Shown: positions 14,354 through 48,816, counted from the first letter of the stretch. The stretch is 64,000 nt of DNA from a bacterium UBP13_UBA5359 (GCA_002410925.1 DHPR01000011.1:11676-75675); one strand, 5' to 3'. Made by a program: numbers and translations. The notes: generated from the sequence alone by a model not told the origin.

Positions 14354-14358
14354 TCTGC

Positions 14359-17899: not shown

Positions 17900-17911
17900 A
17901 TCTCAAAAAGT

Positions 17912-29757: not shown

Positions 29758-30534
29758 TCAAAGTCCATATTCATTGTTATAGCACTTTTCGGGTACGATT
29801 TTTAACATGGTGCCGTCGCCGGCGATGGTAATCCTTTCTTTGGGTAAAAAATCGAGCAGCATGTTGAAAACTTCCTTCTCCTTGCCCTCCAGATCCGGAT
29901 GAATATGCGATAGAACAATCTTGCCTATCTTGCTTTTTATCTTTAAAAACTGAAGGACATCGTCAAGAGGCACATGCGCTAGTTCCATAATAAGAACATC
30001 AGCCTCTTGAAGCCAGCGCAAATCATTTATGGATCCAATATCTCCTGAGTAAACAATCTTTATATCACCTTCAAATGAATAGGAATAAGCCGGACGATTA
30101 TACGGCTTCAAGTGATTCGTAGGGCAAGCGGTGACCTGGAAATTATCATCTTTGAAGATATAACCACTTTGAACCGGAATTATCTCCAACTGGTAAGGAA
30201 GCATATCTCCATGAAGCAATATCAACTCCAGAAAGCTCTTGAATGTGTTAATTGCGTTTTCCGGCATCATAATTGAAAGCTTTTCCGTTCTGCCTGCTAT
30301 CTGCAACGATTGCAATAGCTGAAATATACCGGAAAAATGATCAGCATGCATATGCGAGATAAAAACAGCTTTTATCTCCTTCCAATCAAATCCGGTTCTC
30401 AGCAGCAAACTGCTCACCGGCTCTCCGCAATCAATTAAATACTTATCCTGATCGCAGCAAAGCAACGTGGCAGAATTAAACCGATAAAACGTCGGTATTC
30501 CTGATGCAGTTCCTAAAAAATGCAAACTAATCAT
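29758..30534 (-). CDS. MBL-fold metallo-hydrolase (RNase Z / phosphodiesterase-like)
   Basis: The HxHxDH motif is present as SHMHADHFSG. There is a 4-nt overlap with the upstream PHP gene. Confidence 0.8.
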   Translation of the reverse strand: MISLHFLGTASGIPTFYRFNSATLLCCDQDKYLIDCGEPVSSLLLRTGFDWKEIKAVFISHMHADHFSGIFQLLQSLQIAGRTEKLSIMMPENAINTFKSFLELILLHGDMLPYQLEIIPVQSGYIFKDDNFQVTACPTNHLKPYNRPAYSYSFEGDIKIVYSGDIGSINDLRWLQEADVLIMELAHVPLDDVLQFLKIKSKIGKIVLSHIHPDLEGKEKEVFNMLLDFLPKERITIAGDGTMLKIVPEKCYNNEYGL

Positions 30535-31283
30535 TTGTAGGTTATCCTCTCAATAAGTTGATTATGCAAATTTACTTTTTCTACTATCTGATTCGCCCAA
30601 CCGAGATTGCCCACTCCACAGGCTGAGTGCGCATCAGACCCCAGAGCGAATATCACCCCTCGCTCAGCAAAAATCCTCACTACCCTTAGATAGCTTCTGG
30701 TGAGCTCCTTCACAGGCATAGATGGAAACCACCAACTCATCATATTCATTATTTCAAATGCCTTCCCTCCAGCAACAAAGGCATCGGCAACCTGCATTAA
30801 AAGGTTATCCGGGAAATCGTCAATGCAGATATTCGCTTGCAAGCGCCCGACATTGAAAGGATGTGCAATGATATTGACCAGCGGATTGCCGCACGCATAT
30901 ATATAAGCATCTGCTATATTCCGGCAAAGTTTACCGGGATCGCAAGGAGCATTTGTGTATACACCCTGTGTCAATTTTCCGAGGTCCACCAAAACGATGT
31001 CAAGCTTGCCGGCAATCGCTTCGTCCACTGAAAGAGTACCTCGAGTATCAAGAATTGTTCCTTCTACGCCTGCCAATATGTTAATTGGCGCCTTGATATC
31101 CTTTATTTCCGCCACCAGAGACGGAAGCCATTCGGCATCATCGCTATCAAAGCAATGGTCGGTAATAGCCACGGTATCAAGTCCATTGCTCACTGCGGCC
31201 CTGATATTATCGCTTATCGTATTCTGGCCATCCGAATACAGCGTGTGTGTATGTAGATCATGGCGACCCAATACTTTGCCCAT
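30531..31283 (-). CDS. PHP-domain phosphoesterase (histidinol-phosphatase family)
   Basis: The N-terminal motif DLHTHTLYSDG is present, with later motifs ITDH and GSDAH. Confidence 0.75.
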   Translation of the reverse strand: MGKVLGRHDLHTHTLYSDGQNTISDNIRAAVSNGLDTVAITDHCFDSDDAEWLPSLVAEIKDIKAPINILAGVEGTILDTRGTLSVDEAIAGKLDIVLVDLGKLTQGVYTNAPCDPGKLCRNIADAYIYACGNPLVNIIAHPFNVGRLQANICIDDFPDNLLMQVADAFVAGGKAFEIMNMMSWWFPSMPVKELTRSYLRVVRIFAERGVIFALGSDAHSACGVGNLGWANQIVEKVNLHNQLIERITYK

Positions 31284-31304
31284 ATCTTATCATTTCATAC
31301 CTTT

Positions 31305-34112
31305 CTACTCATTATCGCTTCTTTCCAGAAAGATTATACCCTTTGCCGGATTATGGCCCCCCCTCCATCTCTTATCCAATACGTTTAACTTACCCTTCTC
31401 AAATTTGGCCACGAGCTTATTCTCGCTACCAATGGATAAAGCTTGAGCCTTCCCGATCCTGACCTCAATCCGTCCTCTGGGGAATTCAACATGCCCCGGT
31501 TCATAATCAAGCTTTAGCGATGGGGGCAATGGATCTATCAGTTCCATCGACAATCGTAGCCGGTTCCTTGCCGGTCTCTCTACGTTCGTAAATTTAACAT
31601 CAAGAGAAGAAAAGGCCTCTATGTCCATCTCCGGATCCAGCAACGCATGTTCAAAGAGCAATGGAAGGCCATAATAAGGTCTGATCAACTGCAATCCTAA
31701 TTGCCAACTATTCAAAAAGACTTTATACCCGTTGGCAAAATCCTTTTTTTGCCATAAGTATCTATCCTCAGCATCCTTAAGAAGAAATCTGGAAGCCAAC
31801 GGCTCAACTAAATTAAAGTTCAATACCACATAGCGGTTATTCTTAAAGTTGGTTACCGGAATCCTTATAACCGGCGTTACAGTTTCACTCTGTGAAGGAT
31901 TATATTCCAGAACCAGCAAATCATTTTTGCAGCTTCGCAATGCAATATCCGGATGATAATCGTCCGTTTTGATTTGCTCCTCACTGCGCGTCAGCCAGCG
32001 AGCAATCCCGGCAAGAAGACTGTGCCCAAAATCATACTCCAGATTATATTCCCTTCCCAGATAGGCTACCCTCCCTTTCCCCAGTTCCCTTGTTGACAAA
32101 AGAGGCGTTTCGCCATCTTGACATAGTATCTTACAAAGATTTCGGTAAGGCTTTGCCCCTGCCTCAGAATATTCTTCCCACGGAGGCAGAAGTTGGCGAA
32201 TCATCTCTCTCGACATTTGTCCGCCTGCAAACCATGCCGTAGGATGCGGCATATAATACCTATCCCACCATTCGTATTTCAAATTTTGAAACTGAACCAG
32301 CCATTTGCGGTCATTATATATATTCTCTCTCTTTGAAAGGCTGCGAGCGATAGGATGCAATAATCCCGCTTCAGTTTTGTTGAAGCTTAACAATCTATGT
32401 TTTGCCGGTTTTGCATAATCTACACCTGTTATCTCTCTGAGAGGAGCATATCCTCTATCCCGGCCATAGATATCAGTGTAGCTGGCAGCTCTTAAAGCCA
32501 GCAGCGAGTGCCCCTTCTCTACCCATGACCTGATCTTCCGGACAGCTTTATCATCGATAAGACCACTCATAAAGGGTTCGCTGGGCAAGAGGAGCAAGTC
32601 ACAGTCCGCAGGAATCCTGCCCTGAGCCAAGTCTGCCAGATCAAGATGCTTCCATTTTATCGGAGTGTCCCAGAGATACCCCTCTCTGGTAAAAAGACCG
32701 AAAATAGAAGGCGAATAGTAGCCGGTACCCAAAGATGGTATGTAGCCGGTAGCCGCATAGGAAGGCTTGAAGTTCTTCAAAAGGCCATACAAGAACTTAT
32801 ATTGCAAATTGATCTCCCTTATTGCCCTTAATTGATGAGGTTTTGGCTTGTGCTGAACAGTATTAATTCCCCACCACAGTTTATTCGGCAAGCTATCGTT
32901 AATAGCGCCCCTCAATGTCAGGTGCCACCACCAGCGCAACATCGCATCTCGGTCATCCCGGTTGTAAACCCAATATAAATGAGAATAACCCGGCTTCTTT
33001 TCCCAATTGCCCAGGAAGGCTTTGTTCCAGATAAACTCCCATCCCCAATCAGGAATTTGATTGCCGCCACCCTCCCATTTTCCATTCCAGCTATTCGTCC
33101 AGATAAGCTGGTTGTCAACACCGACTCTTCCCAAGGTTTCGGGGCTTCCACCCTGTGTGAAATCTCCGATATAATAATCATGTCCAGCATTGTTTTTGTG
33201 AATAACCTTGGAGATAACTGATATGGCCTGAGCCACAACGTCGGCTTTAATTTTTATCCAATGCGCCCAGTAAAACGGATCAAGTTCCACAAGTTCAGGA
33301 TCAAATTCAAATCCGGTCTTCTTTCTGTAAAGCTTTTGCATAACAGGAGAACAATCAGCCCATGTATCGCCAAGATAACAGTGCATACTCGCTATAGCTT
33401 CCCAGGTTACGTAGCTGATTTCTCTATATGTCTGTAAGAAAAGATTCAATTTATGAGCCACATATTCAGAATAATCTGTAGGAAGCAAAGCCGGTATGCC
33501 TGATTGGCAAGGAAGATAAGCGGTATAATATTGCCCCGGGCTGCTTTTAATCACAATTTTCCCGTCTCTTATACTCCATTGCTCCCGGAACGGCAACCTT
33601 CTCTTCTTGTGTAATTCTTCGTAAAGGATTCTTCCATCCGGCAAAAAGATATCAGTGGTATCTTTGATAAACCAATATTGGTAGTCTTCTCCTTTCACTA
33701 TATCTTCAGGCAAGGGTATGGATACTGAGCTGCCTTCTGCCTTTACTCTAAACCATTTATAATACCACTGCCGTCTGTCAGGGTATTTTTTTAAATACTC
33801 TAAGCTCCTACCCTTTAATGCCCCTTCCGTGGCTATACCTACTGCATGGAGTTTCAAGCCTTCCCGTCCGTATTCTTGCAACTTCGTAAGATGCGGGACA
33901 TTCCGTTCTTCCGCCGTAACTCCCTCCCAAATATTAAAATTGCTTCCCATAGTTCCATCGGCACAGAGTTTCTTTGCCTGCTTGCCGCCTCCGTCCCAAG
34001 CAAAGACAATCATTCCATCGTCAACAGGCATACTTGCCGGCAAAGCAACGGAAGAAACCTCGCAAAGCAGTATCAAAGCGCTCGACAGTAGAGCAGTAAT
34101 TATCTTATCCAC
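31305..34112 (-). CDS. Large secreted protein of unrecognised family (paralogue of 34141..36915)
   Basis: The track ORF runs to 34226 but that overlaps the upstream gene. A GTG at 34112 preceded by AAAGAGG (8-nt spacer) gives the signal-peptide-like start VDKIITALLSSALILLCEVSS. The protein is collinearly homologous to its neighbour. Confidence 0.65.
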   Translation of the reverse strand: MDKIITALLSSALILLCEVSSVALPASMPVDDGMIVFAWDGGGKQAKKLCADGTMGSNFNIWEGVTAEERNVPHLTKLQEYGREGLKLHAVGIATEGALKGRSLEYLKKYPDRRQWYYKWFRVKAEGSSVSIPLPEDIVKGEDYQYWFIKDTTDIFLPDGRILYEELHKKRRLPFREQWSIRDGKIVIKSSPGQYYTAYLPCQSGIPALLPTDYSEYVAHKLNLFLQTYREISYVTWEAIASMHCYLGDTWADCSPVMQKLYRKKTGFEFDPELVELDPFYWAHWIKIKADVVAQAISVISKVIHKNNAGHDYYIGDFTQGGSPETLGRVGVDNQLIWTNSWNGKWEGGGNQIPDWGWEFIWNKAFLGNWEKKPGYSHLYWVYNRDDRDAMLRWWWHLTLRGAINDSLPNKLWWGINTVQHKPKPHQLRAIREINLQYKFLYGLLKNFKPSYAATGYIPSLGTGYYSPSIFGLFTREGYLWDTPIKWKHLDLADLAQGRIPADCDLLLLPSEPFMSGLIDDKAVRKIRSWVEKGHSLLALRAASYTDIYGRDRGYAPLREITGVDYAKPAKHRLLSFNKTEAGLLHPIARSLSKRENIYNDRKWLVQFQNLKYEWWDRYYMPHPTAWFAGGQMSREMIRQLLPPWEEYSEAGAKPYRNLCKILCQDGETPLLSTRELGKGRVAYLGREYNLEYDFGHSLLAGIARWLTRSEEQIKTDDYHPDIALRSCKNDLLVLEYNPSQSETVTPVIRIPVTNFKNNRYVVLNFNLVEPLASRFLLKDAEDRYLWQKKDFANGYKVFLNSWQLGLQLIRPYYGLPLLFEHALLDPEMDIEAFSSLDVKFTNVERPARNRLRLSMELIDPLPPSLKLDYEPGHVEFPRGRIEVRIGKAQALSIGSENKLVAKFEKGKLNVLDKRWRGGHNPAKGIIFLERSDNE
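32411..32681. repeat. 271-bp patch ~98% identical to 35253..35523 (gene-conversion tract, copy 1)
   Basis: Direct by-eye alignment gives about 6 mismatches in 271 nt. The flanking sequence of the two paralogues is strongly diverged. Confidence 0.85.
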
Positions 34113-34140
34113 TTGCTGCACCTCTTTCAGAGATATCCTC

Positions 34141-36915
34141 TTAGCGGCCGATATACACCTTAAGAAGGTCATTTTTCTCATCATAATCTGCATGCCAGAA
34201 AGGTAAATAGTTGCGAATCGTGCCACCCATGAACTCCAAAGCTGTATTGCCCATAAATCTCAGAACAAGATTCTCTCTTTTCGAAATATAGATATCTATT
34301 CCCTCATTCCCCAACTGCACTACTTCCCATGGCTCCTCGCCGGGCTTCCGTTTCTCTTTATCCTTTTGTAAATAATAGAGAGGAACCTGATAGGGCGGAA
34401 TATCCAAGAGCCGCAGGTCGAGTTCATGCATGGTACCTATATCTTGAACGCTTTCCACCCATTCTTCAAATTGGACTTTCAAGGATGAATATGCAGCGAT
34501 CTTTCGATCAGGGTTGATATAACTGTGCTTAAGCATAATCGGTTTCCGATCATATCTGCAGATTATTTGCAAGCTCAAATCACTAGGAAAAAGAGATACG
34601 CTATAACCGCTTTGCCTTAGCTCCTGGCCATTCCATACTACCCCACCATCTGCCGCTCTTATAAAGCGAGAGTTGGATAATTGCTCTAAATTCATAGATA
34701 GAACAACGTATTCTTTCTGGGGGTTAACTTTATCGGAAATCAACCGCAATTTGCTCTCAACCATATTTTTTGTTGGATTATATGCAGCTACAAGAAATTC
34801 ATCACCGCTTTTACTGTAATGCAGAGATGCGTCAAGGTTGTAATCGCTGTTTTCCAGCGCCAGACTCTTTTCTGCACCCGTCAGCCAAAAAGACGTTCGC
34901 TTCAGAAGATGATGTCCAAAATCATTGCCAAGACCGTATTCTTGAGCCAGGTATGCTACTCTTCCACGGCCAAGAGTTCGCACAGCCACAAAAGGATTAT
35001 TGCCTTTACGGTAAATTACACTTACATCATCTCCGTATACCTTGCTTCCTCTACCCGGATATTCACCCCATGCCGGCAACAGAGCATAAATCATATCAAT
35101 CTGTCTTCCGCCTCTGAACCAATGGGCTGATGGATTGAGCAAATAACGCCCGGCATTTTCGCTGACAGTAACTTGCCCGGGCAAAGAAGATGTAATCCAA
35201 TGTTCCGATGTCTTTATCGCTTCTGTCTTTCCGGCAGCCACCGGCTTAGCATTTGCATAATCTATACCGGTTATCTCTCTGAGAGGAGCATATCCTCTAT
35301 CCCGGCCATAGATATCAGTGTAGCTGGCAGCTCTTAAAGCCAGCAGCGAGTGTCCCTTCTCTACCCATGACCTGATCTTTCGGACAGCTTTATCATCGAT
35401 AAGGCCGCTCATAAAGGGTTCGCTGGGCAAGAGGAGCAAGTCACAGTCCGCAGGAATCCTGCCCTGAGCCAAGTCTGCCAGATCAAGATGCTTCCATTTT
35501 ATCGGAGTGTCCCAGAGATACCCATTCTCGGTGAAGAGAGAGGTCAATGACGGCATGTAAAAATTCGGTCCGAGGCTTGGGATATATCCAGTAGCGATGA
35601 AATCCTGACGATAAGCCTTAAGAAGATCATAAACGAATTTGTATCTCCAGTTTATATCATGCATCCACTTTACTTGTGCAGGGCCGGGGGCCCCGCCAGT
35701 ACCTGTCAACCCCATCCAAAGAAAATCAGGTAAAGACTGATTGACAGCGCCTCTAAAAATAGAGGCTTTCCAATCTTTATTAATGTAATCAGTTGTATTC
35801 CTGACCCAAACGGGTTGTCCATAACCCGGTTTATCCTCCCAACCGCCCCAGAATGTGTTAACCCATTGTTGCGAAGTGTTTACCCACATGTAATTCAAAC
35901 CTGCCGCTCCCAGCGAATCAGCACTTCCACTATATGTGCAATCTCCGATATAATAAGACCCTTTGATTCCGTGTTGTTGATAAAGGCCAAAGAGTATGCG
36001 AGCAGCTTCTGCGACAATCCCCGCCTTGAAATTCGTCCAAAGCCTCCACTGTAGAGGGTCCAGCTGCACTCTTTCCGGATCAAAATCACTGCCGGTTTTC
36101 TCCTTGAAGAGCTTTTGCATGGATGGAGAACAATCGGGCCAGGTTGTGTTGCCGGCATAATTTCCCATACTGGCCAACTCTTCAGCCCAAACATATGAAC
36201 ACGCTCCGCCGCCATCGGCAAAGGACTTCAAAAACCGGCCAAATCTTTCACTGCCGTATCTCTGAGAATCAAATGGCAGAATGCTTACCAGGCCATGCTT
36301 CTCCCTGCAAGGTATGTAGGCAATATATTTGTGCCCCGGCTTGCTTTTCAGAAAAAGACGGCCATCCTTTATATACCACTGAGAAAGAGGAAGTTCACGG
36401 GTTTCTTTGAGAAGATTGAAGTTAATACCCTTATCCAGCAAACCCGTGACATCCTTAATCCTCCAGTATTCAAGGCCCTTGCTCATATCTGCATTATCCG
36501 GAAGAGAGATGGAAAGCAAATCGCCCTCCGCTGTAGCCTGCTGCCAGGCGTACATCCATTGGTATCTATCAGGATGTTCTTGCAGATATTCGCCAAGCTG
36601 CCCCGTTCTCTCGGCAGCATGGATTACCACCCCGACCTCTATACCATTCCGAGTATATTGCCTGGAGAGCCATGAAGAGTATTCCATTTCATTAGTGGAA
36701 TAAGGACGATGTATATACCATGAAAAGAGATTATCAACGTCTATTCCAATTTTTTTGTCGAAAAGAATTCGGTTTTCCGTACTTAACCTGGTCACTCCTC
36801 CCCATGTAGCAACCTTTCCGCCGTCGGGAGAAATAGCGGCCCTTGATGGCAGACAAAGCAATTTCAATAATATTGTGATGGTAATTACCACAAAAAAGGA
36901 CTGTTTCCTTACCAT
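34141..36915 (-). CDS. Large secreted protein of unrecognised family (paralogue of 31305..34112)
   Basis: The signal peptide reads MVRKQSFFVVITITILLKLLCLPSRAA. The protein is 924 aa. It shares blocks with its neighbour (WPDCSP.MQKL, YYIGD, GYIPSLG, and an identical 88-aa segment). Confidence 0.7.
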   Translation of the reverse strand: MVRKQSFFVVITITILLKLLCLPSRAAISPDGGKVATWGGVTRLSTENRILFDKKIGIDVDNLFSWYIHRPYSTNEMEYSSWLSRQYTRNGIEVGVVIHAAERTGQLGEYLQEHPDRYQWMYAWQQATAEGDLLSISLPDNADMSKGLEYWRIKDVTGLLDKGINFNLLKETRELPLSQWYIKDGRLFLKSKPGHKYIAYIPCREKHGLVSILPFDSQRYGSERFGRFLKSFADGGGACSYVWAEELASMGNYAGNTTWPDCSPSMQKLFKEKTGSDFDPERVQLDPLQWRLWTNFKAGIVAEAARILFGLYQQHGIKGSYYIGDCTYSGSADSLGAAGLNYMWVNTSQQWVNTFWGGWEDKPGYGQPVWVRNTTDYINKDWKASIFRGAVNQSLPDFLWMGLTGTGGAPGPAQVKWMHDINWRYKFVYDLLKAYRQDFIATGYIPSLGPNFYMPSLTSLFTENGYLWDTPIKWKHLDLADLAQGRIPADCDLLLLPSEPFMSGLIDDKAVRKIRSWVEKGHSLLALRAASYTDIYGRDRGYAPLREITGIDYANAKPVAAGKTEAIKTSEHWITSSLPGQVTVSENAGRYLLNPSAHWFRGGRQIDMIYALLPAWGEYPGRGSKVYGDDVSVIYRKGNNPFVAVRTLGRGRVAYLAQEYGLGNDFGHHLLKRTSFWLTGAEKSLALENSDYNLDASLHYSKSGDEFLVAAYNPTKNMVESKLRLISDKVNPQKEYVVLSMNLEQLSNSRFIRAADGGVVWNGQELRQSGYSVSLFPSDLSLQIICRYDRKPIMLKHSYINPDRKIAAYSSLKVQFEEWVESVQDIGTMHELDLRLLDIPPYQVPLYYLQKDKEKRKPGEEPWEVVQLGNEGIDIYISKRENLVLRFMGNTALEFMGGTIRNYLPFWHADYDEKNDLLKVYIGR
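35253..35523. repeat. 271-bp patch ~98% identical to 32411..32681 (gene-conversion tract, copy 2)
   Basis: See copy 1. Confidence 0.85.
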
Positions 36916-36944
36916 AATTCGCCCCCTGCCCTAATCAATCGGCT

Positions 36945-37628: not shown

Positions 37629-37663
37629 AACACAACCCCTCCCTTTTTATCTAATCAACACAA

Positions 37664-38335: not shown

Positions 38336-38410
38336 AGCCCTCTTTATCTATGATTATAATCTCGCTGCTTTGTATATGCGTTTCCTGACATTTTCTATAA
38401 GCACCTTATA

Positions 38411-39172: not shown

Positions 39173-39225
39173 AGTTTGCTTACCCTTATATTTATATCCT
39201 TCTAGGTTGCTCTTGCTTTATGAAT

Positions 39226-39254: not shown

Positions 39255-39264
39255 CATTTGATCG

Positions 39265-39308: not shown

Positions 39309-39565
39309 TGAGCAATATTACAGGAAGTGCCTTGTCTCATAAAAACCTATTCGAAACAGTATCGATGCCTCAAATTAAAAATCTACTTGGAATGACCTCC
39401 GGATTAAGGGCTTATTTAGCATTAGCAGAGCAGAGTATTTTGCAATCCGGAGGTTAGCTATGTATGGGTAGCCTTTGCCATGTAAAGAACACAAATCCCT
39501 TTTCAGAGGGACTAAAGCCGAATACAAACGTGTCTCTAAAAGGGATAAAAAGACTATCCTTAGAG

Positions 39566-39938: not shown

Positions 39939-39943
39939 TATTT

Positions 39944-42397
39944 CTATATCCTCTCCATCAAATTGTCCGATTGCATTGTCCATTTTTGTTTCCGAATGAA
40001 AAGACGTACCGTTAACAATTGCCATGGATATAGTTTCACCGTTCCTACAATCTTCCCCAACACGCATATGTCCGCTCTTCGTTCATTGCCGGTCTCTTCC
40101 CATAAATGCAACACCCAACCGTGACCGTCTTCGGCTTTTTTCAGAGCAGTCATCACTACACCGTCGGAATCAACCGAAATCACTGATTGAGATGGGGGCA
40201 ATTCCCCTGCATGAGGAAACCCCAATGTAATGTGTACCGGCATATTCAATTCTCTTGCAGCCTGCGAAATGCTCTTTGCAGGTACGATGACATATTTGAA
40301 AATATGGGTGCCGATATCCATAAAGGGCCTTTCAGGTGAAGCATGGCGCTCATCTATTATCTTATTGCCACATAATGGTGAACGCACTACCGACATGCGC
40401 AACTTGTTGCCGGTTATATTAAAGCCGTACTTTCCGGTAGCAGCCAAGCCGACGCCATCACTGTTGCCTGTAAATACCGCTACCCATCCGTTACAGGGAA
40501 CCTCACCAATATCAGGCACTCTCTCTACAACAGCGTACGGTGCGGAAAACAACGCCTTGAAATTCTCTCCATCAATAGGAAATTCCAATTTGCACAGACT
40601 ATTAGGTTCATTCCATATCAATCTTGCCTGACAATCGATACGTTTTAATCCACGATAGAGAGTGAACTCTTGAATAAGACGGCTGCAGCTATATTGACTG
40701 ATTACCAGTAGTGTGGCTTTTATCGGCCCTTTTTGCAATATATGAACCTTTGTTGTTTTGAATTTGCCTGATACTTTATCCCAGGAATCTATTTTTGATC
40801 CCCATAAGTTACCCATATCTTCCAAAACGATACCGGCTGCCGCATCGCCGCTGAACCACTGTTTTCCGCTTTCGACATCGCTTACCCGGATACCGTATCT
40901 CCCCGGCTGGGCTGCAATACGGAGGTACTTATTACTAATAAAACGCTCATCATTCTTTTCACCCGCCGTGATTTCCTCAGGCAAAAGTAATGGTGTTTCA
41001 GTTGGCTGCAACCAGTAGGTAGCATACCCGCAGGCAGGTATTTGTGCCATAAAACAGCCCCTTACCCGCCATTCCTGCTTAATATTCACTTCTGTGGGCA
41101 AAAATTGAATAGGAACTTTTGTGCCATCAGATGCAATGGCACAAGCATACCGTATTCTTCGTTCGCCGTCTCCCGAGCTTAACGGTCTGTATTCCAATAA
41201 CCATTCCAATTCTATCGGTCCGCTGAAAGGTGTTCCATGAGAATTGAAAAGTAAAACAGGCATTCCCTCGCGTACGGAAGTATCGATATTCAAAAAAATC
41301 GGCAAAGCGGCATCATTGGCTACTGATTTGGCTTCATGCCGAACACACCCTAAATGATCGAGCGCCTCGTCACAAACGCGTTCGATAGCAGTTCCAGGCA
41401 AGATATCATGGGCTTGGTTAAAAAGGATGCCTTTCCATATCTTTTTTATGGGCTCTCCAGGGTACCCGGCCTGGCCTAGTATATCTGCAACAGAGGCCCA
41501 TCTTTCGGCACAATTTACCAGACTTTCTGCTTCATGATAGGCGCTTTTTACTGTTGCCGCTGAAGTATAGCAGCCACGTGCATAAAACTGCAATTCCCCT
41601 TCAATCACAGGAAGCTGCAAAGCATATTCTTCTACATTGGCAAAAAACTGACCCAGGGTAGAGAGTCTTAATTCGCAACCCTCCGGCGGATGAGCAATGT
41701 TTTCGTATATCTCGGCTACAAGCCGCCGATTTAAGCCGCCACCGTGATCGCCAAATCCAATCAGCATTAACCAGTCATGCAGGCCGTCCGGCACCTGCTG
41801 TAATCCACGGCGAATACGCGCATTCAACGTAAAAGCAGGATCGGTTTCCTCAAACTCCAACCCATAGCTCTCCAAGTTGACAGTTATAATTTCACTTCCA
41901 TCCGAACCTCGCCAGCGGAAAAGCCTTGAAGGTGTAGGTAAATCTTCTTGGGAGGGGCGACGTTGTACAGCAAAACGACAGCCGACAGCCCGGTATATTG
42001 ACGGCAAACCGGCAGCATGCCCAAAGCTATCAACATTATAGGCTATTTCAGGTATGATACCGAAACGACTATGAAAATACTGCTGGCCATATAAAAACTG
42101 CCTTACATATGTTTCTCCATCGCCCAAATTATTATCCGGTTGCAACAGTGTGCCACCGGTAATCTCCCAGCGGCCTGCCCCAATCAAACGTGTTATACGA
42201 GCAAAAAGGTCTGGATCATGTTTTTCGATATGCTCATAAATGAACGCTTCTCCACGTGTAAAAGTGATATCGCTATGCTCTTCCATGAGAGATGCTACCG
42301 CCCTGCATGTAGCTATCCCTTCGTTCAATCCTTCCCGCCAATCCCAAAGCCAAGCAATATCGAGATGTGCGTTGGGAATCAAATGAATTCTAAGCAT
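39944..42397 (-). CDS. GH38 alpha-mannosidase
   Basis: The N-terminus is MLRIHLIPNAHLDIAWLWDW. The protein is 817 aa, has no signal peptide, and shows a typical GH38 layout. Confidence 0.85.
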   Translation of the reverse strand: MLRIHLIPNAHLDIAWLWDWREGLNEGIATCRAVASLMEEHSDITFTRGEAFIYEHIEKHDPDLFARITRLIGAGRWEITGGTLLQPDNNLGDGETYVRQFLYGQQYFHSRFGIIPEIAYNVDSFGHAAGLPSIYRAVGCRFAVQRRPSQEDLPTPSRLFRWRGSDGSEIITVNLESYGLEFEETDPAFTLNARIRRGLQQVPDGLHDWLMLIGFGDHGGGLNRRLVAEIYENIAHPPEGCELRLSTLGQFFANVEEYALQLPVIEGELQFYARGCYTSAATVKSAYHEAESLVNCAERWASVADILGQAGYPGEPIKKIWKGILFNQAHDILPGTAIERVCDEALDHLGCVRHEAKSVANDAALPIFLNIDTSVREGMPVLLFNSHGTPFSGPIELEWLLEYRPLSSGDGERRIRYACAIASDGTKVPIQFLPTEVNIKQEWRVRGCFMAQIPACGYATYWLQPTETPLLLPEEITAGEKNDERFISNKYLRIAAQPGRYGIRVSDVESGKQWFSGDAAAGIVLEDMGNLWGSKIDSWDKVSGKFKTTKVHILQKGPIKATLLVISQYSCSRLIQEFTLYRGLKRIDCQARLIWNEPNSLCKLEFPIDGENFKALFSAPYAVVERVPDIGEVPCNGWVAVFTGNSDGVGLAATGKYGFNITGNKLRMSVVRSPLCGNKIIDERHASPERPFMDIGTHIFKYVIVPAKSISQAARELNMPVHITLGFPHAGELPPSQSVISVDSDGVVMTALKKAEDGHGWVLHLWEETGNERRADICVLGKIVGTVKLYPWQLLTVRLFIRKQKWTMQSDNLMERI

Positions 42398-42564
42398 ACA
42401 AATTTCCTCCTGTTCAATAACATCCTCCGGAATTATTGATCCCGGAACAAATTGTAACAGGATGCTTCGGTTACGGATATGCAGACATTCTGCTGAAGCA
42501 CCCCGTTACAGAAGTTCATGAAATCAATAGCACAGCATATTGAGCAATGTTTGCCTCTTCCTCG

Positions 42565-43386
42565 TTAGTCTTGGTATGTCGGAAATTCCGACGATTGGAC
42601 TGTGGCACGAGGCTGATAACTTAATATGGCGCTTATTTCTTGATCCATCGCAGACACATCTACGCTTGAGGGAGGGTTATAAGGATCGAAGTTATCCGTA
42701 TACCTTATACACTTGGAGATACGCAGTTCATCAATAGATCCCGTGAAGTAACTCCATATACCCCCCGAGGGATAACCTCTTCCTATGTAAAGAGGATTTC
42801 CGCTTTCGCTTCTCAAAGGATTCTTATTAGTCGGTATATAGCCGATACGGGTACCATCAACATACAACCCCATATGCCCAGAACCGTACGTTGCCGCTAT
42901 ATGATGCCATACGCCCAATGTCAAAGCGGGAGTATAGATACTATCCAGTACTCCTACCGAGTCATAGAAAATCATCCTGAGAATGTTTCCCGATCTTCCG
43001 GCTAATCGCCAGTTCCAGTTTCTAAACAGTATATCCTTATTAAGCACTATAGTCGTAGGCTTGAACCAGAACTCTATGGTGAGGTTATCCACAACGTTCA
43101 GACTGGTGTGATTGGGGATCGTTACGTAATCATCGACCCCGTCGAAGTTAACGGCTGAACCGAATACACCCGCACCTCTGCCGGCGCCACCGGAGATTGT
43201 CCCCATGTTGTCATTGCTGCTGGCATCCGTAACCGTATCACCCCCCGCCTCGTTGAAATGCAACAGCAGCACCGTGTTAGCATCATTTTGATAAAGCGTA
43301 TCTGCGGCCGAGCTTACCTTTACGCACACCGACAACATCATGATACTGATTAGAAGAATCCCACTGAATACTCGTCCCATTCTCAT
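42565..43386 (-). CDS. Secreted LamG (laminin-G_3/concanavalin-like) domain protein, short copy
   Basis: A signal peptide is followed by LLLHFNE...D.S.N.N.GTISGGA...FG.A.NFDG.DDYVTIP...IEFWFKP...DELRIS. The first ~235 aa are near-identical to the N-terminus of 43420..45852. Confidence 0.7.
   Translation of the reverse strand: MRMGRVFSGILLISIMMLSVCVKVSSAADTLYQNDANTVLLLHFNEAGGDTVTDASSNDNMGTISGGAGRGAGVFGSAVNFDGVDDYVTIPNHTSLNVVDNLTIEFWFKPTTIVLNKDILFRNWNWRLAGRSGNILRMIFYDSVGVLDSIYTPALTLGVWHHIAATYGSGHMGLYVDGTRIGYIPTNKNPLRSESGNPLYIGRGYPSGGIWSYFTGSIDELRISKCIRYTDNFDPYNPPSSVDVSAMDQEISAILSYQPRATVQSSEFPTYQD
42671..43370. repeat. 700-bp direct repeat, copy 1 (roughly 93% identical to 45143..45842)
   Basis: Aligned by eye along the whole length. 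It covers the signal peptide plus the LamG module of both genes. Confidence 0.85.
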
Positions 43387-43419
43387 TTCGCTTTCCCTCC
43401 TTAATACGCATCATTTACC

Positions 43420-45852
43420 CTACAGCAATGCGGCAATCTCATTATCCAGATTCGATACATCAATATATAGTGTCTCTACCTGTGATGCAATTGTTACGGC
43501 GTTACCTGCAAGAAATTCGTTTTCATAATCAAAAAACGATTGGCTCAAAGTTATTATCTGATTTCGGCAAGGTCCTATAACGTCTTCACCGTGAGTAAGA
43601 CAAAGAATGTTCATATTATTGTTAATATTAGTAAAAACATCTCTGATGTTCTCCAATCTTCCGCTAACTGTGTTAAATGATGGGGCTGCCCCAAGCACGG
43701 TCGTTATTTGTGACTTGCACTCATCAACTTTCTGCATGGCTAACACATAGTTACCTGCGTTCCATGCCGTTTGAATATCCTGTAAATAGCCTTGAAATGT
43801 TATGTTATAGCTTTCTGGATTATATGCTTGAACCTGTTCCAAATCTATTTTTATAATGTCTCTTTCGGCATTTATGCGTTTGCGTAAGATTTGGTTCTTT
43901 ATATCCGCGAACTCCTGCTGTGTTGCAAATAAGAAAATCCTTCCTTCGCCGGGTAGCAAACTACTAACACTAAAAGACACTGTAGTCTCTCCAACAGTAC
44001 CGATGCTTTGATCACTTAGGTTATAAAGATCAAAAACATTCTTATCACCCTGCTTGGGTATGGATATTCCCCCCGGTCCAGTTTGTCGCGAGTTGTTCAC
44101 ATCATTATTGAAAACAACATAATAATCTACATCCCATCCACTATCCCTTAAAACTCCCGTTGCGATAGCCGGCCGCTGTACCCCGCCACAATCAATATTA
44201 ACAGTGTCAACTGTTATTTCAGGCGAATTAACTACCTGCGTTTTGGCAAGCAACGGACCTATTGAAGTAAAATACTTCCCCATATTTCCGACTTCTTCCC
44301 AGAGGTTAGTGGCACCTATCCATGGCGTTGTCAAGGTAAAATCAAACTTTTCCCCTCCCCATGGGACGATCCGCCATCTGGTTTCGTGGTTATAAATGAA
44401 GAAGTAAAGTCCTTTTGCTCCGTTAGCCAATGCCTGATAGCACATTACTCGAAACTCCGGCACAGATGGAAACATGGCTATTCTTTTATCCTGATACCCT
44501 TGAATCCAAGTCCATGCGGGCTTGTTCCCTGCAAACTCACGAATGTTCCGGACCCGTTCTCCCATAATCCAAGGATCCCGAACACCCGGACTCGACCTAA
44601 TGGGATAATTAGTGGCGTAACTCGACCTAATGGGATAATTAGTGGAGTAATAAACGTTCAGATATGGTGCATAATACCGCATACTGCTTTGTAACTCGAA
44701 ATCAAAGCCAAAGCCTGTCTCTCCCCAATGCTTCTGGCTTATGCCTTCTATAAGCTTTTTAAGCTTAATAAACGAAAGTATATGTTGTGGCTTCGCTTCG
44801 TCCGCCAATGCCCAATATAAAATGTTGCTTTCGTCTTTATACTTTTCCAATCTCGCTGAACAAGCGTCTATTACATCCTGAGGGACATCAGCTTGAGCAG
44901 CAGCAGGATGTAATCCGGGCACCAAATAAAGACCGTATTTTTTGATGTCTGCGCAGAGGCTATCCGTCGTTCCGATAGTTGGATCGGGAAAATAGTTTGG
45001 GGAATAAGCAGTGTTTATATAGTGCTTTTTTATATCTTTGAACTGTTTTGCTCTCATTGTCTCAATGCTTTCATTAAATATCCCCGCCATATGAGAAGAG
45101 ATAATCGGATGAAAATAAACCCCATATAGGAAACATGGCAGAGGAGGATTATAAGGATCAAAGCTATCCGTATACCTTATACACTTGGAGATACGCAGTT
45201 CATCAATGGATCCCGTGAAATAACTCCATTTCTCCCCCGAGGGATAACCCCTTCCTATGTAAAGAGGATTTCCGTTTTCGCTTCTCAAAGGATTCTTATT
45301 TGTCGGTATATAGCCGATACGGGTACCATCGACATATAACCCCATATGCCCAGAACCGTACGTTGCCGCTATATGATGCCATACGCCCAGCGTCAAAGCG
45401 GGAGTAAAGATATCGAACAGCCCTCCTGCAGAGTCATAGAAAATCATCCTGAGAATGTTTCCCGATCTTCCTGCTAATCGCCAGTTCCAGTTTCTAAAGA
45501 GTATATCCTTATTAAGCGCTATCGTCGTAGGCTTGAACCAGAACTCTATGGTGAAGTTATCCGCAACGTTCAGACTGGTGTGGTTGGGGATCGTTACATA
45601 ATCATCGACTCCGTCAAAGTTAAGGGCTGAACCGAATACACCCGCACCTCTGCCGGCGCCGCCGGAGATTGTTCCCGTGTTGGCATTACTGCTGGCATCT
45701 GCAACCGTATCGCCCTCCGCCTCGTTGAAATGTAACAGCAGCACCGTGTTAGCATCATTTTGATAAAGCGTATCTGCAGCCGAGCTTACCTTTACATACA
45801 CCGACAACATCATGATACTGATTAAAAGAACCACACTGAATAACTTTTTCAT
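43420..45852 (-). CDS. Secreted LamG-domain protein fused to a ~550-aa TIM-barrel-like (GH42/GH-like) domain
   Basis: The N-terminus matches the short copy. The C-terminal part (NILYWALADEA..., WTWIQGYQ, GAKGLYFFIY) resembles a glycoside-hydrolase barrel, but the family is not identified. Confidence 0.7.
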   Translation of the reverse strand: MKKLFSVVLLISIMMLSVYVKVSSAADTLYQNDANTVLLLHFNEAEGDTVADASSNANTGTISGGAGRGAGVFGSALNFDGVDDYVTIPNHTSLNVADNFTIEFWFKPTTIALNKDILFRNWNWRLAGRSGNILRMIFYDSAGGLFDIFTPALTLGVWHHIAATYGSGHMGLYVDGTRIGYIPTNKNPLRSENGNPLYIGRGYPSGEKWSYFTGSIDELRISKCIRYTDSFDPYNPPLPCFLYGVYFHPIISSHMAGIFNESIETMRAKQFKDIKKHYINTAYSPNYFPDPTIGTTDSLCADIKKYGLYLVPGLHPAAAQADVPQDVIDACSARLEKYKDESNILYWALADEAKPQHILSFIKLKKLIEGISQKHWGETGFGFDFELQSSMRYYAPYLNVYYSTNYPIRSSYATNYPIRSSPGVRDPWIMGERVRNIREFAGNKPAWTWIQGYQDKRIAMFPSVPEFRVMCYQALANGAKGLYFFIYNHETRWRIVPWGGEKFDFTLTTPWIGATNLWEEVGNMGKYFTSIGPLLAKTQVVNSPEITVDTVNIDCGGVQRPAIATGVLRDSGWDVDYYVVFNNDVNNSRQTGPGGISIPKQGDKNVFDLYNLSDQSIGTVGETTVSFSVSSLLPGEGRIFLFATQQEFADIKNQILRKRINAERDIIKIDLEQVQAYNPESYNITFQGYLQDIQTAWNAGNYVLAMQKVDECKSQITTVLGAAPSFNTVSGRLENIRDVFTNINNNMNILCLTHGEDVIGPCRNQIITLSQSFFDYENEFLAGNAVTIASQVETLYIDVSNLDNEIAALL
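44591..44650. repeat. 30-nt tandem duplication x2 inside the 810-aa gene (1 mismatch)
   Basis: CTCGACCTAATGGGATAATTAGTGGCGTAA is followed by CTCGACCTAATGGGATAATTAGTGGAGTAA. The duplication is in frame and encodes S/A-TNYPIRSS-Y twice. Confidence 0.9.
45143..45842. repeat. 700-bp direct repeat, copy 2
   Basis: See 42671..43370. Confidence 0.85.
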
Positions 45853-45965
45853 TATCCGTTCCCTTCATTCTTTTTTACAGGACCTCACCACGTATATTCC
45901 ATCTCTACAGATTTATAAATACAACTGCCTTGATTGTAATTAACTGCTGGGTATCTATTCAATAA

Positions 45966-46847
45966 TTATATTGCGACCCTATTTGCGTCAGGAATACCAA
46001 AGCTTTCCTCGCATATTCTTTTTGCCTCTTTTGCAATACTATAAGGATTTTTATAGCGCCTGGACGAAACTGTTTCCAGCATAAAGACACCCTGATAGTT
46101 TATGTCATGCAGCGCCCTTGATATTTCACTCCAATCGATACTACCTTCACCAGGCATAAGGTGTTCATCCTCTTTTTTATTATTATCATGAATGTGCAAA
46201 TATGACATCAATTCTCTGTTTTCGTTGATTACCGCTGCCGGCGATGAGTTGCCAAGCCAGAAATGGGCTAAATCAAAACAAAGACCAATCCTTTCTTTCC
46301 CTATCGACCTTATGACCCTTCCTAACATTCCTATATCGCCATTAAACCTGCCCAGCAAATTCTCCAGCAATATCTTAATTCCGTTCTTTTCACCGACATC
46401 AGCCAACTCATTGGCAGCATCCATTAACCGTTTTTCGGCCTCGGAAACGCTATCGGATGTGGTAAAAAATGCTTCCTCTTCACTGGGATGAAAAACAGCG
46501 TATTCTATCCCTAACTCCCCCCCATTCTCTAAACTACGCCTAACAATTTTCATTGCATGCGCCCTCTCAGCCCTATCCAATGAAACAACAGATCCCAAAC
46601 CATTATCGGGAGGAAGATGGAGTGATATAATTTTCACTCCAAGCATATCAACAAGCTTCTTTAATTCCCTTATCTTCTCTCCGCTGAGATAACCGCTGTC
46701 TAAAAAGGGACTACTCATGTCGCTATATTCAAAGTATTTATAACCGATGTCCGCCAAACCACTTAATGCGTAGGTGACATCCCTTGTTAGCTTTGAGTAT
46801 CCCAACGTAGATATACCGAGCTTAATACCGTTATAATTATCTATCAT
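45966..46847 (-). CDS. Sugar phosphate isomerase/epimerase (xylose-isomerase-like TIM barrel)
   Basis: The protein is 293 aa. The blocks AVFHPSE, LLENL, CFDLAHF, HIHDN and FMLE are typical of the AP_endonuc_2 fold. Confidence 0.8.
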   Translation of the reverse strand: MIDNYNGIKLGISTLGYSKLTRDVTYALSGLADIGYKYFEYSDMSSPFLDSGYLSGEKIRELKKLVDMLGVKIISLHLPPDNGLGSVVSLDRAERAHAMKIVRRSLENGGELGIEYAVFHPSEEEAFFTTSDSVSEAEKRLMDAANELADVGEKNGIKILLENLLGRFNGDIGMLGRVIRSIGKERIGLCFDLAHFWLGNSSPAAVINENRELMSYLHIHDNNKKEDEHLMPGEGSIDWSEISRALHDINYQGVFMLETVSSRRYKNPYSIAKEAKRICEESFGIPDANRVAI

Positions 46848-46870
46848 TAAATCCTACCCAACCAATCCAA

Positions 46871-47455
46871 TCAATTTCTATCCCACCAATTAGATTTGTC
46901 GATGGTGTCAAATAAATACCATTTAACATGGCCATCTGCGAACAAAACGTTTGCTCCGCCACTATGCCTGTCGCTGACCTTATGATTAGGATTAGTATTC
47001 AGCGGCGCAATAACAAAATCAACCCCTGCATCAGCAATGATAATCGTCTCTGAGGGATTTACAATCTGAGACAAGCTTACCCCCTTTCTAGTACCCGTGG
47101 AAAGCCAAGAATAATTGTATCCATACGACATCTTGGCGTTCCACACATAATCAGGATGAGAAGGACACTTAAATATATTGGTATTTTTTATATAGTTGTT
47201 ATTGAGCGTCTTGTGCCAGTCGTCTAATCCTACTGCCGAATGGGCAGGGAAAATTTCATCGTAATCTTGAAGATACAGCATTACAGCATGCCCTAGCTGC
47301 TTCAAATTGCTCATACAGGCCCCTTGCCTGGCTTTTTCCCTGGCTTTACCAAATACCGGGAAAAGTATGGCAGCCAATATAGATATTATGGCAATGACTA
47401 CCAGTAATTCTATTAATGTGAAGCCTTTCTTAACCACATCAATCTTCCTTATCAT
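46871..47455 (-). CDS. Prepilin-type N-terminal methylation-domain protein, H-X9-DG pseudopilin
   Basis: The leader and cleavage site read [27 protein letters not shown]. The C-terminal [17 protein letters not shown] gives an exact H-x9-DG. Confidence 0.85.
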
Positions 47456-47613
47456 TTATAATTCCTCCCCTGAAAATATTTGCTTATTACGCTTCTAAAC
47501 TCATCTTTGTACCAGTCCCGAATGTGCATCAAATTCAAGTGAGCAACTGGATCACTTTCTAGTTGGCGTTCGCAAAAAATATGCGCTATGACACGATCAA
47601 CATCTTTCGAATG

Positions 47614-48759
47614 TCAATTGCTTGCGCTATTTTGCCCGATTCCACTAGATTCTCTTACGATCAATTTAGGTTTTAATCGAACCTGCTTAAACTTAGTCGT
47701 CTTTTTGTTTATCTTATCTATTAACATTTCTACAGCTACTTTACACATATCTTTCCAAGGCTGAACGACCGTAGTTAGCGAAACCGGCAGGTCTGTGGCA
47801 AATCTTGAGTCATCAAATCCAACTATTGCTATGTCATTAGGTATGCTTAAATCATTATCTGCGATTATCCTCATCGAATTTACAGCAAGATACTCCATGG
47901 CAGCAAAACAGGCGGTTGAACCTTTATGCATGCCGGCAATTTTAATTATCTCGTGCTGCCAATCGCACTCGCCATCAACAAATACATAATCTGAATTATA
48001 TTGAAGCCCTGAATCAATAAGGGCCTGCTTATACCCCTCTAATCTCTCTTTTGCCGAAGTGCAGTTTCTTACCACAGGTTTGGTAAGATGGAGAATAGTC
48101 GTAAATCCGTTTAACACGAGATGCTTTACTGCCGTATAAGCTCCGTAATAATTATCACTTACTACATAATCCGTATCAACCTGCGGCAAATATCTATCAA
48201 TAAGGACAAATGGAAAGTCTTTATCAAGAACGATGTCTTCTATATATTCCTTATTTAATCTACCCTGCCCATTTTTACTGGCAAGCCAAATAATTGCTCC
48301 ATCGACGTTACTATTCCTCAGTTCTTCTATCCTCATTATCTCCATGGAATAATCGTCCTCAGAGTTACAGAAGATAAGGTGGTAACCGTTATTTCGACAT
48401 GTTCTCTCCAATCCTAGCACTGCGCCGGTAATTACTAAATTTGTTACTTCCGGAGCAATAAAAGCAATTGTTTTAAAATTTTTCTCAAGACTGACTCTTT
48501 TTTCGGGAATTATATTTACAAACGTTCCGTGCCTTGGCCTACGGTAAGCAAGACCTTCTTTTATCAACTCCGTAATTGCCTGTCTTGCAGTAACAATGCT
48601 AATAGCATACATTTTGCAAAGAGTTTCCAACGTGGGAATTTTATCACCTGAAAGCAACTCCTTGCTTAATATATCGCTCTTTATTATATCTTTCAGTTGA
48701 ATATATAAAGGAGTCGGATCATCTCTTTTTAATTGTTTCTTCATTCCCTTTTCAATCAT
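47614..48759 (-). CDS. Hybrid regulator: GntR-type wHTH fused to a LacI/periplasmic-binding-protein-type sugar-binding domain
   Basis: The N-terminus reads PLYIQLKDIIKSDILSKELLSGDKIPTLETLCKMYAISIVTARQAITELIKEGLAYRRPRHGTFV. The C-terminus has a Peripla_BP-like pattern (IAIVGFDD). Confidence 0.85.
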   Translation of the reverse strand: MIEKGMKKQLKRDDPTPLYIQLKDIIKSDILSKELLSGDKIPTLETLCKMYAISIVTARQAITELIKEGLAYRRPRHGTFVNIIPEKRVSLEKNFKTIAFIAPEVTNLVITGAVLGLERTCRNNGYHLIFCNSEDDYSMEIMRIEELRNSNVDGAIIWLASKNGQGRLNKEYIEDIVLDKDFPFVLIDRYLPQVDTDYVVSDNYYGAYTAVKHLVLNGFTTILHLTKPVVRNCTSAKERLEGYKQALIDSGLQYNSDYVFVDGECDWQHEIIKIAGMHKGSTACFAAMEYLAVNSMRIIADNDLSIPNDIAIVGFDDSRFATDLPVSLTTVVQPWKDMCKVAVEMLIDKINKKTTKFKQVRLKPKLIVRESSGIGQNSASN

Positions 48760-48771
48760 TTCAGTAATACT

Positions 48772-48816
48772 GTCCTTATATTCTTTATATTCTTTATATT
48801 CTTAACATTCTTTATA
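48772..48816. repeat. Five tandem 9-mers (TTCTTTATA and variants) directly upstream of the hybrid regulator gene
   Basis: The + strand reads TCCTTATA TTCTTTATA TTCTTTATA TTCTTAACA TTCTTTATA. The array starts 13 nt from the ATG at 48759. Confidence 0.7.

Follow-up and report, generated by a model that had tools for sequence, protein, structure and literature searches.

Organisation of the two loci

A 64,000-nt stretch of the genome of bacterium UBP13_UBA5359 (GCA_002410925.1, DHPR01000011.1:11676-75675), referred to below as the window, carries two adjacent loci, A and B, in each of which a small pseudopilin-like protein (ppA or ppB) is encoded directly behind a sugar-sensing regulator and ahead of enzymes and putatively secreted proteins. 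The present analysis concerns this arrangement, its recurrence in other bacteria, and the role that pseudopilins of the DUF1559, or H-X9-DG, family may play in it. All of the open reading frames (ORFs) that a first-pass annotation had assigned to both loci were found at their coordinates on the minus strand, and scans with hidden Markov models (HMMs) confirmed most of the family labels given to their products. The genes are listed in the order of transcription.

Locus A
38411-39172, minus strand: DeoR-family regulator, 253 aa (HTH_DeoR, E value 1.9e-15; DeoRC, E value 2.8e-47, 161 bits)
37664-38335, minus strand: pseudopilin ppA, 223 aa, leader MIMERKG before FTLIELLVV, H-x9-NG
36945-37628, minus strand: A3, 227 aa, signal-peptide-like N-terminus, no known family
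34141-36915, minus strand: A4, 924 aa, Sec-signal protein, distantly GH112/GH42-like
31305-34112, minus strand: A5, 935 aa from the GTG at 34112, paralogue of A4 (product P0124)
30531-31283, minus strand: PHP-domain phosphoesterase, 250 aa, cytoplasmic (PF02811, E value 1.6e-10)
29758-30534, minus strand: MBL-fold hydrolase, 258 aa, N-terminal half RNase Z-like (Lactamase_B_2, E value 1.3e-15), 4-nt overlap with the PHP gene

Locus B
47614-48759, minus strand: regulator with a GntR-type helix-turn-helix (HTH) and a LacI-type sugar-binding domain, 381 aa (GntR, E value 2.9e-14, 52.9 bits; Peripla_BP_3, E value 7.8e-28, 98.1 bits)
46871-47455, minus strand: pseudopilin ppB, 194 aa, 11-residue leader before FTLIELLVV, exact H-X9-DG
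45966-46847, minus strand: xylose-isomerase-like TIM-barrel sugar isomerase/epimerase, 293 aa (PF01261, AP_endonuc_2, E value 5.2e-45), 23 nt after ppB
43420-45852, minus strand: B4, 810 aa, signal peptide, LamG_3 at residues 80-223 (PF13385, E value 2e-26)
42565-43386, minus strand: B5, 273 aa, signal peptide and LamG_3 only, duplicate of the B4 N-terminus
39944-42397, minus strand: GH38 alpha-mannosidase, 817 aa, without signal peptide (Glyco_hydro_38N, E value 9.4e-52, with the middle and C-terminal domains)

Successive genes of locus A are separated by 75, 35, 29, 28, 21 and -4 nt, and these measured gaps bear out the earlier description of a series in which all genes overlap or lie within 80 nt of each other. 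The gaps of locus B are wider, at 158, 23, 113, 33 and 167 nt in order. The gene spacing in both loci is compatible with co-transcription. The GH38 gene, which is preceded by the 167-nt gap and a weak hairpin (42447-42425), is possibly the last gene of locus B. By a crude test, signal-peptide-like N-termini are present in A3, A4, A5, B4 and B5, and no signal peptide is present in the TIM-barrel isomerase, GH38, PHP and MBL proteins. The secreted products had been described as giant, which overstates sizes of 810-935 aa. Their assignment to glycan loci stood in part: it agrees with GH38, the LamG domains and the GH112-like pair, while A3 and the C-terminal 570 aa of B4 belong to no recognisable family.

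Sequence and predicted structure of the pseudopilins

Six-frame translation of the 64 kb reveals only two prepilin motifs, those of ppA and ppB, which share 37% identity. In both proteins the cleavage site is canonical (G at -1, F at +1, E at +5) and scores above the cutoff of TIGR02532 (32.9 bits for ppA and 37.6 bits for ppB; cutoff 16.3). Both proteins also exceed the cutoffs of the N-terminal methylation motif PF07963 (N_methyl; 31.9 and 35.0 bits, respectively; cutoff 21.2) and of the DUF1559 family PF07596 (36.3 and 52.0 bits; cutoff 23.3), where the best stretch corresponds to profile positions 2-46 of 268. The exact H-X9-DG motif reported for ppB was confirmed by TIGR04294, which matches residues 161-179 with 35.8 bits (cutoff 19). 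TIGR04294 gives no match for ppA, in which NG followed by E stands where the family has DG followed by H, and ppA is thus to be regarded as a divergent family member. On the strength of these profiles, ppB belongs fully to the DUF1559 / H-X9-DG family, with ppA as a divergent member. The nearest relatives come from Armatimonadota, Abditibacteriaceae and WS1 and carry the annotation DUF1559. Both pseudopilin starts are preceded by a good Shine-Dalgarno sequence, which for ppB is GGAGG about 7 nt before the ATG.

An alignment of ppB, ppA and 24 homologues (26 sequences) has three parts. The first, which comprises the N-terminal helix and continues to the end of the QDYDE motif, has a fixed length and a mean pairwise identity of 79%; the middle region has 18% identity and varies in length from 61 to 113 residues; and the H-X9-DG block is again of fixed length, with a mean identity of 56%. 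Two cysteines and E(+5) are invariant. Filament subunits combine conserved assembly parts with an exposed, variable part that carries specificity, and by analogy with pilins in general the constant-variable-constant layout seen here would be typical of such subunits, with specificity residing in the exposed part. The AlphaFold2 (AF2) model of ppB built with this alignment is confident (predicted local distance difference test, pLDDT, 85.6) and pilin-like in architecture: it consists of a helix of 50 residues and a small head that contains a four-stranded sheet. A profile of the 26 pseudopilins searched against PDB sequences matched known pilins over the N-terminal helix only.

Both proteins resemble the major pseudopilin of type II secretion systems (T2SS), GspG/PulG, in having a class III signal peptide, a hydrophobic helix of about 50 residues and, in the predicted structure, a small alpha/beta head. 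Unlike GspG/PulG, proteins of the ppA/ppB type add a conserved Cys pair, the QDYDE motif and the H-X9-DG block, and the two in the window belong to sugar operons and not to a secretion operon, with neither gspD/E/F nor minor pseudopilin genes alongside them in the 64 kb. Their scores with TIGR01710 (42.3 bits for ppA and 38.2 bits for ppB) fall short of the cutoff of 88.85 and derive from the N-terminal 58-61 residues only. Judged by these sequence criteria, neither ppA nor ppB is a GspG equivalog.

The first-pass annotation had reported that the window encodes no ATPase, platform protein, secretin or prepilin peptidase of a T2SS or type IV pilus (T4P). The Pfam scans of the other large ORFs agree with this, and no Walker A motif of the GspE/PilB type occurs in any frame of the 64 kb. 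Among the families that these scans identified in the rest of the window are GH130, GH78, UxaE, MFS, sugar dehydrogenases, a sugar kinase, DnaE and ArgRS.

Linkage of pseudopilin genes to sugar-responsive regulators

Eighty pseudopilin loci were collected by profile from contigs representing one genome per species in the Armatimonadota, Lentisphaerota, Verrucomicrobiota, Planctomycetota and Omnitrophota, and 77 of these, comprising 771 genes, were used. A GspE/PilB-type ATPase is encoded within 10 kb in just 3 of the 77 loci, so that pseudopilins of this kind are typically orphans, as had been claimed for ppA and ppB and as the window scans also found. The upstream neighbour is co-oriented with the pseudopilin gene in 50 of 70 cases (71%) and the downstream neighbour in 51 of 75 (68%), compared with 161 of 330 background genes (49%). 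Pfam domains of the 70 upstream neighbours include Peripla_BP_3 (10), GntR (6), LacI (3) and AraC (2), and none of these turns up among the families listed for 120 control genes taken from four or more genes away. These neighbour summaries cover the top 25 families, and the contigs of metagenome-assembled genomes (MAGs) may be chimeric.

Regulators were counted by an iterated search seeded with the regulator of the window. Eleven of the 17 LacI/GntR-Peripla_BP regulators recovered among the 771 genes lie immediately upstream of a pseudopilin gene (Fisher odds ratio 21.6, p = 1.3e-8). Ten of the 11 are on the same strand as the pseudopilin, and several, in several phyla, overlap it by 4-46 nt. 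An independent metagenome replicate with a ppA-based query gave 3 of 4 regulators directly upstream (odds ratio 28, p = 0.004). Loci led by a regulator were present in Lentisphaerota, Armatimonadota, Phycisphaerae and Verrucomicrobiota. The pairing of regulator and pseudopilin is non-random, and the adjacency first noticed in the window is enriched above chance in both the species-genome and the metagenome samples. Genes downstream are mostly carbohydrate-related or encode large unannotated proteins. Their families include GH92, GH78, GH39, GH42, GH67N, heparinase II/III, DUF4838 and LamG_3, as well as GFO_IDH_MocA, ThuA, PGI, PHP and one SSF symporter, and no ABC sugar importer is among the downstream families listed.

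In the literature searched, a single study, published in 2026, describes a pseudopilin of this kind within a polysaccharide operon that its substrate induces, although the arrangement may be noted elsewhere. Operon pgaptmp_000046-60 of Verruconatronum alginivorum, whose genome has 67 paralogues, encodes a pulG-like pseudopilin beside an SSF symporter; it is upregulated as a unit on alginate, and the pseudopilin is co-induced at the protein level (PMC13274419). The operon is likened to loci A and B by description, not by sequence homology: it shares a pulG-like pseudopilin inside a polysaccharide operon and differs in phylum, in substrate and in having polysaccharide lyases as its enzymes. The authors read the pseudopilin as a part of T2SS export, without generalising (PMC13274419). 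A systematic link of DUF1559 proteins to LacI/GntR-type regulators and carbohydrate genes is not described in the searched literature that mentions DUF1559; the family has no assigned function, and this link is what the present analysis adds.

It might be argued that the pseudopilin has no functional link to its neighbours at all, and that numerous DUF1559 genes, duplicated or transferred, simply land behind regulators by accident. The family is indeed numerous, with 67-74 copies per genome (PMC10632474, PMC2754498, PMC13274419); its genomic contexts are heterogeneous, and the low-GC stretch that holds loci A and B bears signs of both recombination and gene conversion. An accident of this kind is nevertheless very improbable, and we disfavour it, in view of the roughly 20-fold, replicated enrichment, the excess of shared strand on both sides, the start/stop overlaps with the regulator in several phyla, the retention of the arrangement in the orthologous loci described below, and the co-induction in the V. 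alginivorum alginate operon.

Solute-binding protein genes often directly follow the regulator in LacI-regulated sugar operons, and the pseudopilin occupies just this slot. It could accordingly be imagined as a membrane-tethered periplasmic binding protein that forms no filament, its helix, once the leader is cleaved, anchoring the variable domain to the inner membrane, where this would hand oligosaccharides to a secondary transporter. The absence of ABC sugar importers from the listed downstream families and the SSF symporter adjoining the V. alginivorum pseudopilin are in line with this, as is the nomenclature: PF07596 bears the name SBP_bac_10, an early paper took the family as solute-binding (PMC2754498), and NCBI names some members 'PulG-like putative transporter'. 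A simple anchor, however, would not call for 79% identity along the helix or an invariant E(+5), which are demands of filament assembly, and no similarity to any solute-binding fold was found. We consider a tethered binding protein decidedly improbable.

Orthologous loci

That the gene adjacency is kept in related genomes, as the first-pass annotation would lead one to expect, was found on three contigs (L085, L083 and L084). L085 retains the regulator, the ppB orthologue and the TIM-barrel isomerase, with a 24-nt gap between the last two, and the gene that follows the isomerase differs. The regulator and the isomerase are each 90% identical to those of locus B and the pseudopilin 76% (L085 1335-1919 versus 46871-47455), and by this comparison ppB evolves faster than its operon partners. 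L085 keeps the regulator and isomerase and not the LamG genes; what has been conserved beside ppB is therefore a regulator together with a cytoplasmic sugar enzyme, and no secreted cargo.

On L083 a pseudopilin gene lies directly upstream of an A4/A5-like pair, and genes for a GntR regulator with a periplasmic-binding-protein domain, MBL and PHP, the last two adjoining, are divergently transcribed. L084, a Verrucomicrobiae MAG, encodes a ppA orthologue (45% identity), PHP, a LacI-type regulator and an A3 orthologue (E value 1e-39) directly upstream of an A4 homologue; an insertion sequence (IS) element interrupts the locus, and A5 is present only as a C-terminal fragment. The A4/A5 family is thus accompanied by PHP on both L083 and L084, by MBL on L083, and by a small pseudopilin or an A3-like gene. 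No ppA orthologue on the metagenome contigs exceeds about 35% full-length identity.

T2SS export polysaccharide-degrading enzymes, and this suggests another function for the orphan pseudopilins: each could be an inducible, cargo-matched subunit of the T2SS pseudopilus, which pushes or recruits the Sec-exported proteins of its own locus (A3, A4 and A5, or B4 and B5) through a shared secretin. The N-termini of the pseudopilins are closest to GspG/PulG and the type IVa pilins, loci A and B each have several signal-peptide-like products, and by the crude test at least one such product is encoded in 7 of the 11 regulator-led operons with same-strand downstream genes. It is also how the V. alginivorum authors understood their pseudopilin (PMC13274419), and in one planctomycete fucoidan upregulates the T2SS (PMC11685898). 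The remaining 4 of the 11 operons encode no signal-peptide-like product; this survey is mixed and its heuristic crude, and it does not separate uptake from secretion. Against a cargo-matched subunit, the L085 orthologue of ppB has kept the regulator and the cytoplasmic isomerase rather than the LamG proteins, and the immediate neighbours of surveyed pseudopilins are often cytoplasmic sugar enzymes (GFO_IDH_MocA, PGI, ThuA). We know of no T2SS for which a cargo-specific major pseudopilin has been described, which also speaks against it. Strict co-evolution of pseudopilin and A4 family, considered as a further possibility, is not supported: the pseudopilin beside the A4/A5 homologues of L083 resembles ppA no more closely than it does ppB, again to the disadvantage of cargo matching. 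On balance we regard the secretion subunit as the main alternative, a serious if somewhat unlikely explanation.

Three further DUF1559 contexts were seen, comprising a tandem in a large LamG/GH cluster, a tandem near sugar oxidoreductases and one gene amid housekeeping genes. At positions 1-14759 of a 3.78-Mb genome contig (L166), two tandem DUF1559 pseudopilin genes, without an adjacent regulator, stand in the middle of a same-strand cluster that encodes very large proteins (LamG_3, DUF6259 and unannotated proteins of 997-1135 aa). The cluster is a second type of pseudopilin-glycan locus.

Comparison with known glycan-uptake systems

Pilus-like structures have been tied experimentally to the binding or uptake of large glycans in bacteria of the Planctomycetes-Verrucomicrobia-Chlamydiae (PVC) group. 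Gold-labelled dextran binds to pili-like fibres of Planctomycetes (PMC5394234), and Akkermansiaceae require a type IV-like pilus locus to take up mucin and fucoidan (PMC13174399, PMC12418764). According to a 2025 review, the players in planctomycete-type binding and import of polysaccharides are still unknown (PMC12673574), and two DUF1559 copies are essential in Planctopirus (PMC10632474). The planctomycete fibres and the Akkermansia locus MUL2 (Amuc_1099-1102) are likened to loci A and B by description only. Unlike these, MUL2 has its own PilM-like gene and an archaeal-type pilin, does not encode a DUF1559 protein and is not regulator-led; the Pfam scans of the window turned up no match to the PilM family.

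The polysaccharide utilisation loci (PULs) of Bacteroidota offer an analogy, and an analogy only, in that many paralogous loci each have their own sugar sensor and substrate-specific enzymes, with one small, variable envelope protein near the front of each locus. In contrast to a PUL, the window has no gene for a TonB-dependent transporter or a SusD-like protein by the Pfam scans.

Proposed role of the pseudopilins

The reading we put forward, with a confidence that stops a little short of even, is that the two loci are substrate-regulated carbohydrate-utilisation operons in which the pseudopilin is a locus-specific envelope subunit that serves substrate acquisition through a shared, distant machine. 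The pseudopilin had been described as the first structural gene of sugar-regulated loci, and its conservation in that position and the enrichment behind regulators bear this out. A sugar or oligosaccharide effector would free the DeoR or GntR/LacI-type regulator, and the operon would be transcribed. A prepilin peptidase encoded elsewhere would cut the pseudopilin after Gly(-1), and the invariant N-terminal helix together with the H-X9-DG block would permit its entry into a shared T2SS/T4P-like machine, or its anchoring in the inner membrane. The hypervariable, locus-specific middle region might then bind the glycan or oligosaccharide, or hand it to the Sec-exported A3, A4 and A5 or B4 and B5, and the glycan would be passed on towards import for the cytoplasmic TIM-barrel isomerase, GH38, PHP and MBL.

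Co-transcription, the use of a distant machine and, above all, acquisition rather than secretion are what we infer here. Acquisition is favoured because ppB has kept a regulator and an enzyme of cytoplasmic sugar metabolism, rather than a secreted protein, as its partners, because cytoplasmic sugar enzymes are frequent immediate neighbours of the surveyed pseudopilins, because no classical sugar importer is among the downstream genes listed for the surveyed loci, and because dextran is bound by pilus-like fibres of Planctomycetes and Akkermansia needs a type IV-like pilus locus to take up mucin.

Several observations weigh against this reading. Both loci encode Sec-signal proteins that need a route across the outer membrane, which fits secretion equally well, and T2SS export of the co-encoded enzymes is as compatible with most of the data as is glycan capture or presentation by the pseudopilin. 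The globular part of the pseudopilin, about 130 aa, contains no recognisable carbohydrate-binding module. Type IV pilins rank first when the ppB model is compared with the PDB by Foldseek, with E values of 0.14-0.37 that are not significant. The survey used crude gene calls (longest ORFs) on loci picked by their similarity to ppB or ppA, and its sample is biased accordingly; regulator-led genes make up only about 8-16% of the sampled DUF1559 genes, and others are found in tandem, beside housekeeping genes, or occasionally beside secretin or T2SS-F genes. A scan of 29.5-49.3 kb returned promoter-like and terminator-like sites at the level of shuffled sequence (47 versus 43.4 and 14 versus 16.9, respectively). 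It is therefore uninformative on operon boundaries and leaves gene spacing as the sole basis for the operon structure.

A more general version of the acquisition model, which we think unlikely, would make DUF1559 pseudopilins the substrate-recognition subunits through which PVC bacteria, the Armatimonadota and phyla related to them would 'fish' for glycans with fibres and import them. A pilin with a hypervariable tip would be supplied by each sugar regulon, and a shared motor of the T2SS/T4P type, encoded elsewhere, would extend and retract it.

Other genes of locus B

B4 and B5 had been introduced as secreted LamG paralogues. Both do have LamG domains; the relationship is confined to the N-terminal LamG part of B4, which is all that B5 copies. 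Over 701 nt the two are 92.7% identical in nucleotide sequence, with 90% amino acid identity. The C-terminal approximately 570 aa of B4 gave no match in Pfam or the PDB, and the PDB search found the LamG domain alone. Between the window and the near-identical strain L002, B5 diverges by 9.85% (window 42565-43404; L002 14018-15033), as compared with 0-1.4% for neighbouring genes, and the LamG duplicate is a hot spot of recombination or diversification. L002 has about 139 additional bases between B4 and B5, and leftward from the B4 stop the window and L002 are 99.88% identical.

Other genes of locus A

A3 had been called a jelly-roll protein, a designation that remains unproven, as A3 matches no family in Pfam (E values up to 10), NCBIfam or the PDB and has no profile similarity to LamG. 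An alignment of A3 and its orthologue with LamG_3 domains by hhalign, which would have made A3 a LamG/jelly-roll protein, gave a probability of 0.1%.

The paralogy of A4 and A5 holds, with an overall identity of 41-43%. The length of 973 aa given earlier for A5 corresponds to an ORF that overlaps A4. The protein is most likely 935 aa long, since the GTG start at 34112 yields a proper signal peptide and matches product P0124. A tract of 288 nt in A5 (32410-32697) is 95% identical to A4 (35252-35539) and looks like a patch of recent gene conversion; it falls where the GH112 central domain matches weakly.

Matches of A4 to GH112 models are weak (LBP_M, E value 1.9e-4; TIGR02336, E value 5e-7) and miss the family level, with 28.2 bits for TIGR02336 (cutoff 560) and 21.5 bits for PF17385 (cutoff 25.2); A5 matches neither TIGR02336 nor PF17385. 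A search of A4 against PDB sequences found nothing. The AF2 model of A4, built from a 5-sequence alignment, is poor (mean pLDDT 45.3). Even so, Foldseek with this low-confidence model puts structures of GH112 (galacto-N-biose/lacto-N-biose phosphorylase) in every one of the first 11 places (E values 7e-10 to 2e-8 over about 300 columns), at TM-scores of only 0.2-0.28. From the profiles and the model, A4 and A5 look like a distant GH112/GH42-like family, which is to be taken as a lead and not as membership. Proteins of the A4 family are extremely rare: among 5.8 billion proteins they form only 5 clusters.

Intergenic repeats and base composition

Two symmetrical elements occur upstream of the regulators.

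39258-39315: near-perfect inverted repeat with 28-nt arms and a 2-nt spacer, in the 771-nt gap between the GH38 and DeoR genes, adjoining a promoter-like site at 39254-39226 (minus strand)
48787-48826: palindrome with 13-nt arms, in the divergent intergenic region between an AraC gene and the GntR-HTH/Peripla_BP_3 regulator gene of locus B, overlapping a promoter-like site at 48847-48820 (minus strand)

The first could be an operator, or else a terminator or insulator, and the second is a candidate operator of locus B. The GC content is 0.40-0.47 over both loci (window 30000-50000) as against 0.48-0.53 on the flanks. Given the lower GC content and the signs of recombination, the two loci may have been horizontally acquired.

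Other features of the window

The following features lie outside the two loci.

2023-4032, minus strand: 669-aa ORF with no Pfam family, amid sugar-metabolism genes
4096-4854, minus strand: 252-aa ORF matching the C-terminal part only of SBP_bac_1/8, with no matching permease genes seen nearby
13451-14353, plus strand: GH130 gene, overlapped by a longer antisense ORF
13466-14563, minus strand: the antisense ORF, of no family
17909-18347, minus strand: RNase P RNA, bacterial class A (274.9 bits)
57137-57208, minus strand: one tRNA gene

The 252-aa ORF may be a truncated gene or one with a mis-set start, and the antisense ORF at 13466-14563 is almost certainly spurious.

Significance

In Planctomycetota, Verrucomicrobiota, Lentisphaerota and Armatimonadota, few paralogous families are as large as the DUF1559 / H-X9-DG proteins, which have no known function. 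In at least four phyla these pseudopilins recur as the gene that immediately follows a sugar-sensing repressor and heads a carbohydrate operon, and the family is thereby placed in a concrete physiological setting. The parts, namely pseudopilin, regulators and carbohydrate-active enzymes, were already known; what is new is their conserved and statistically supported wiring. If the 'fishing' model were true, the pseudopilin would be the functional counterpart of SusD or of the solute-binding proteins of ABC importers, and the model would account both for the 60-70 or more paralogues per genome and for the missing classical importers downstream in the surveyed loci. Where markers of the SusC/D type are absent from a phylum, the pattern would serve as a practical guide to glycan-utilisation loci and to enzyme families without annotation, A4/A5 among them, and the regulator-led arrangement makes the role of the pseudopilin testable.

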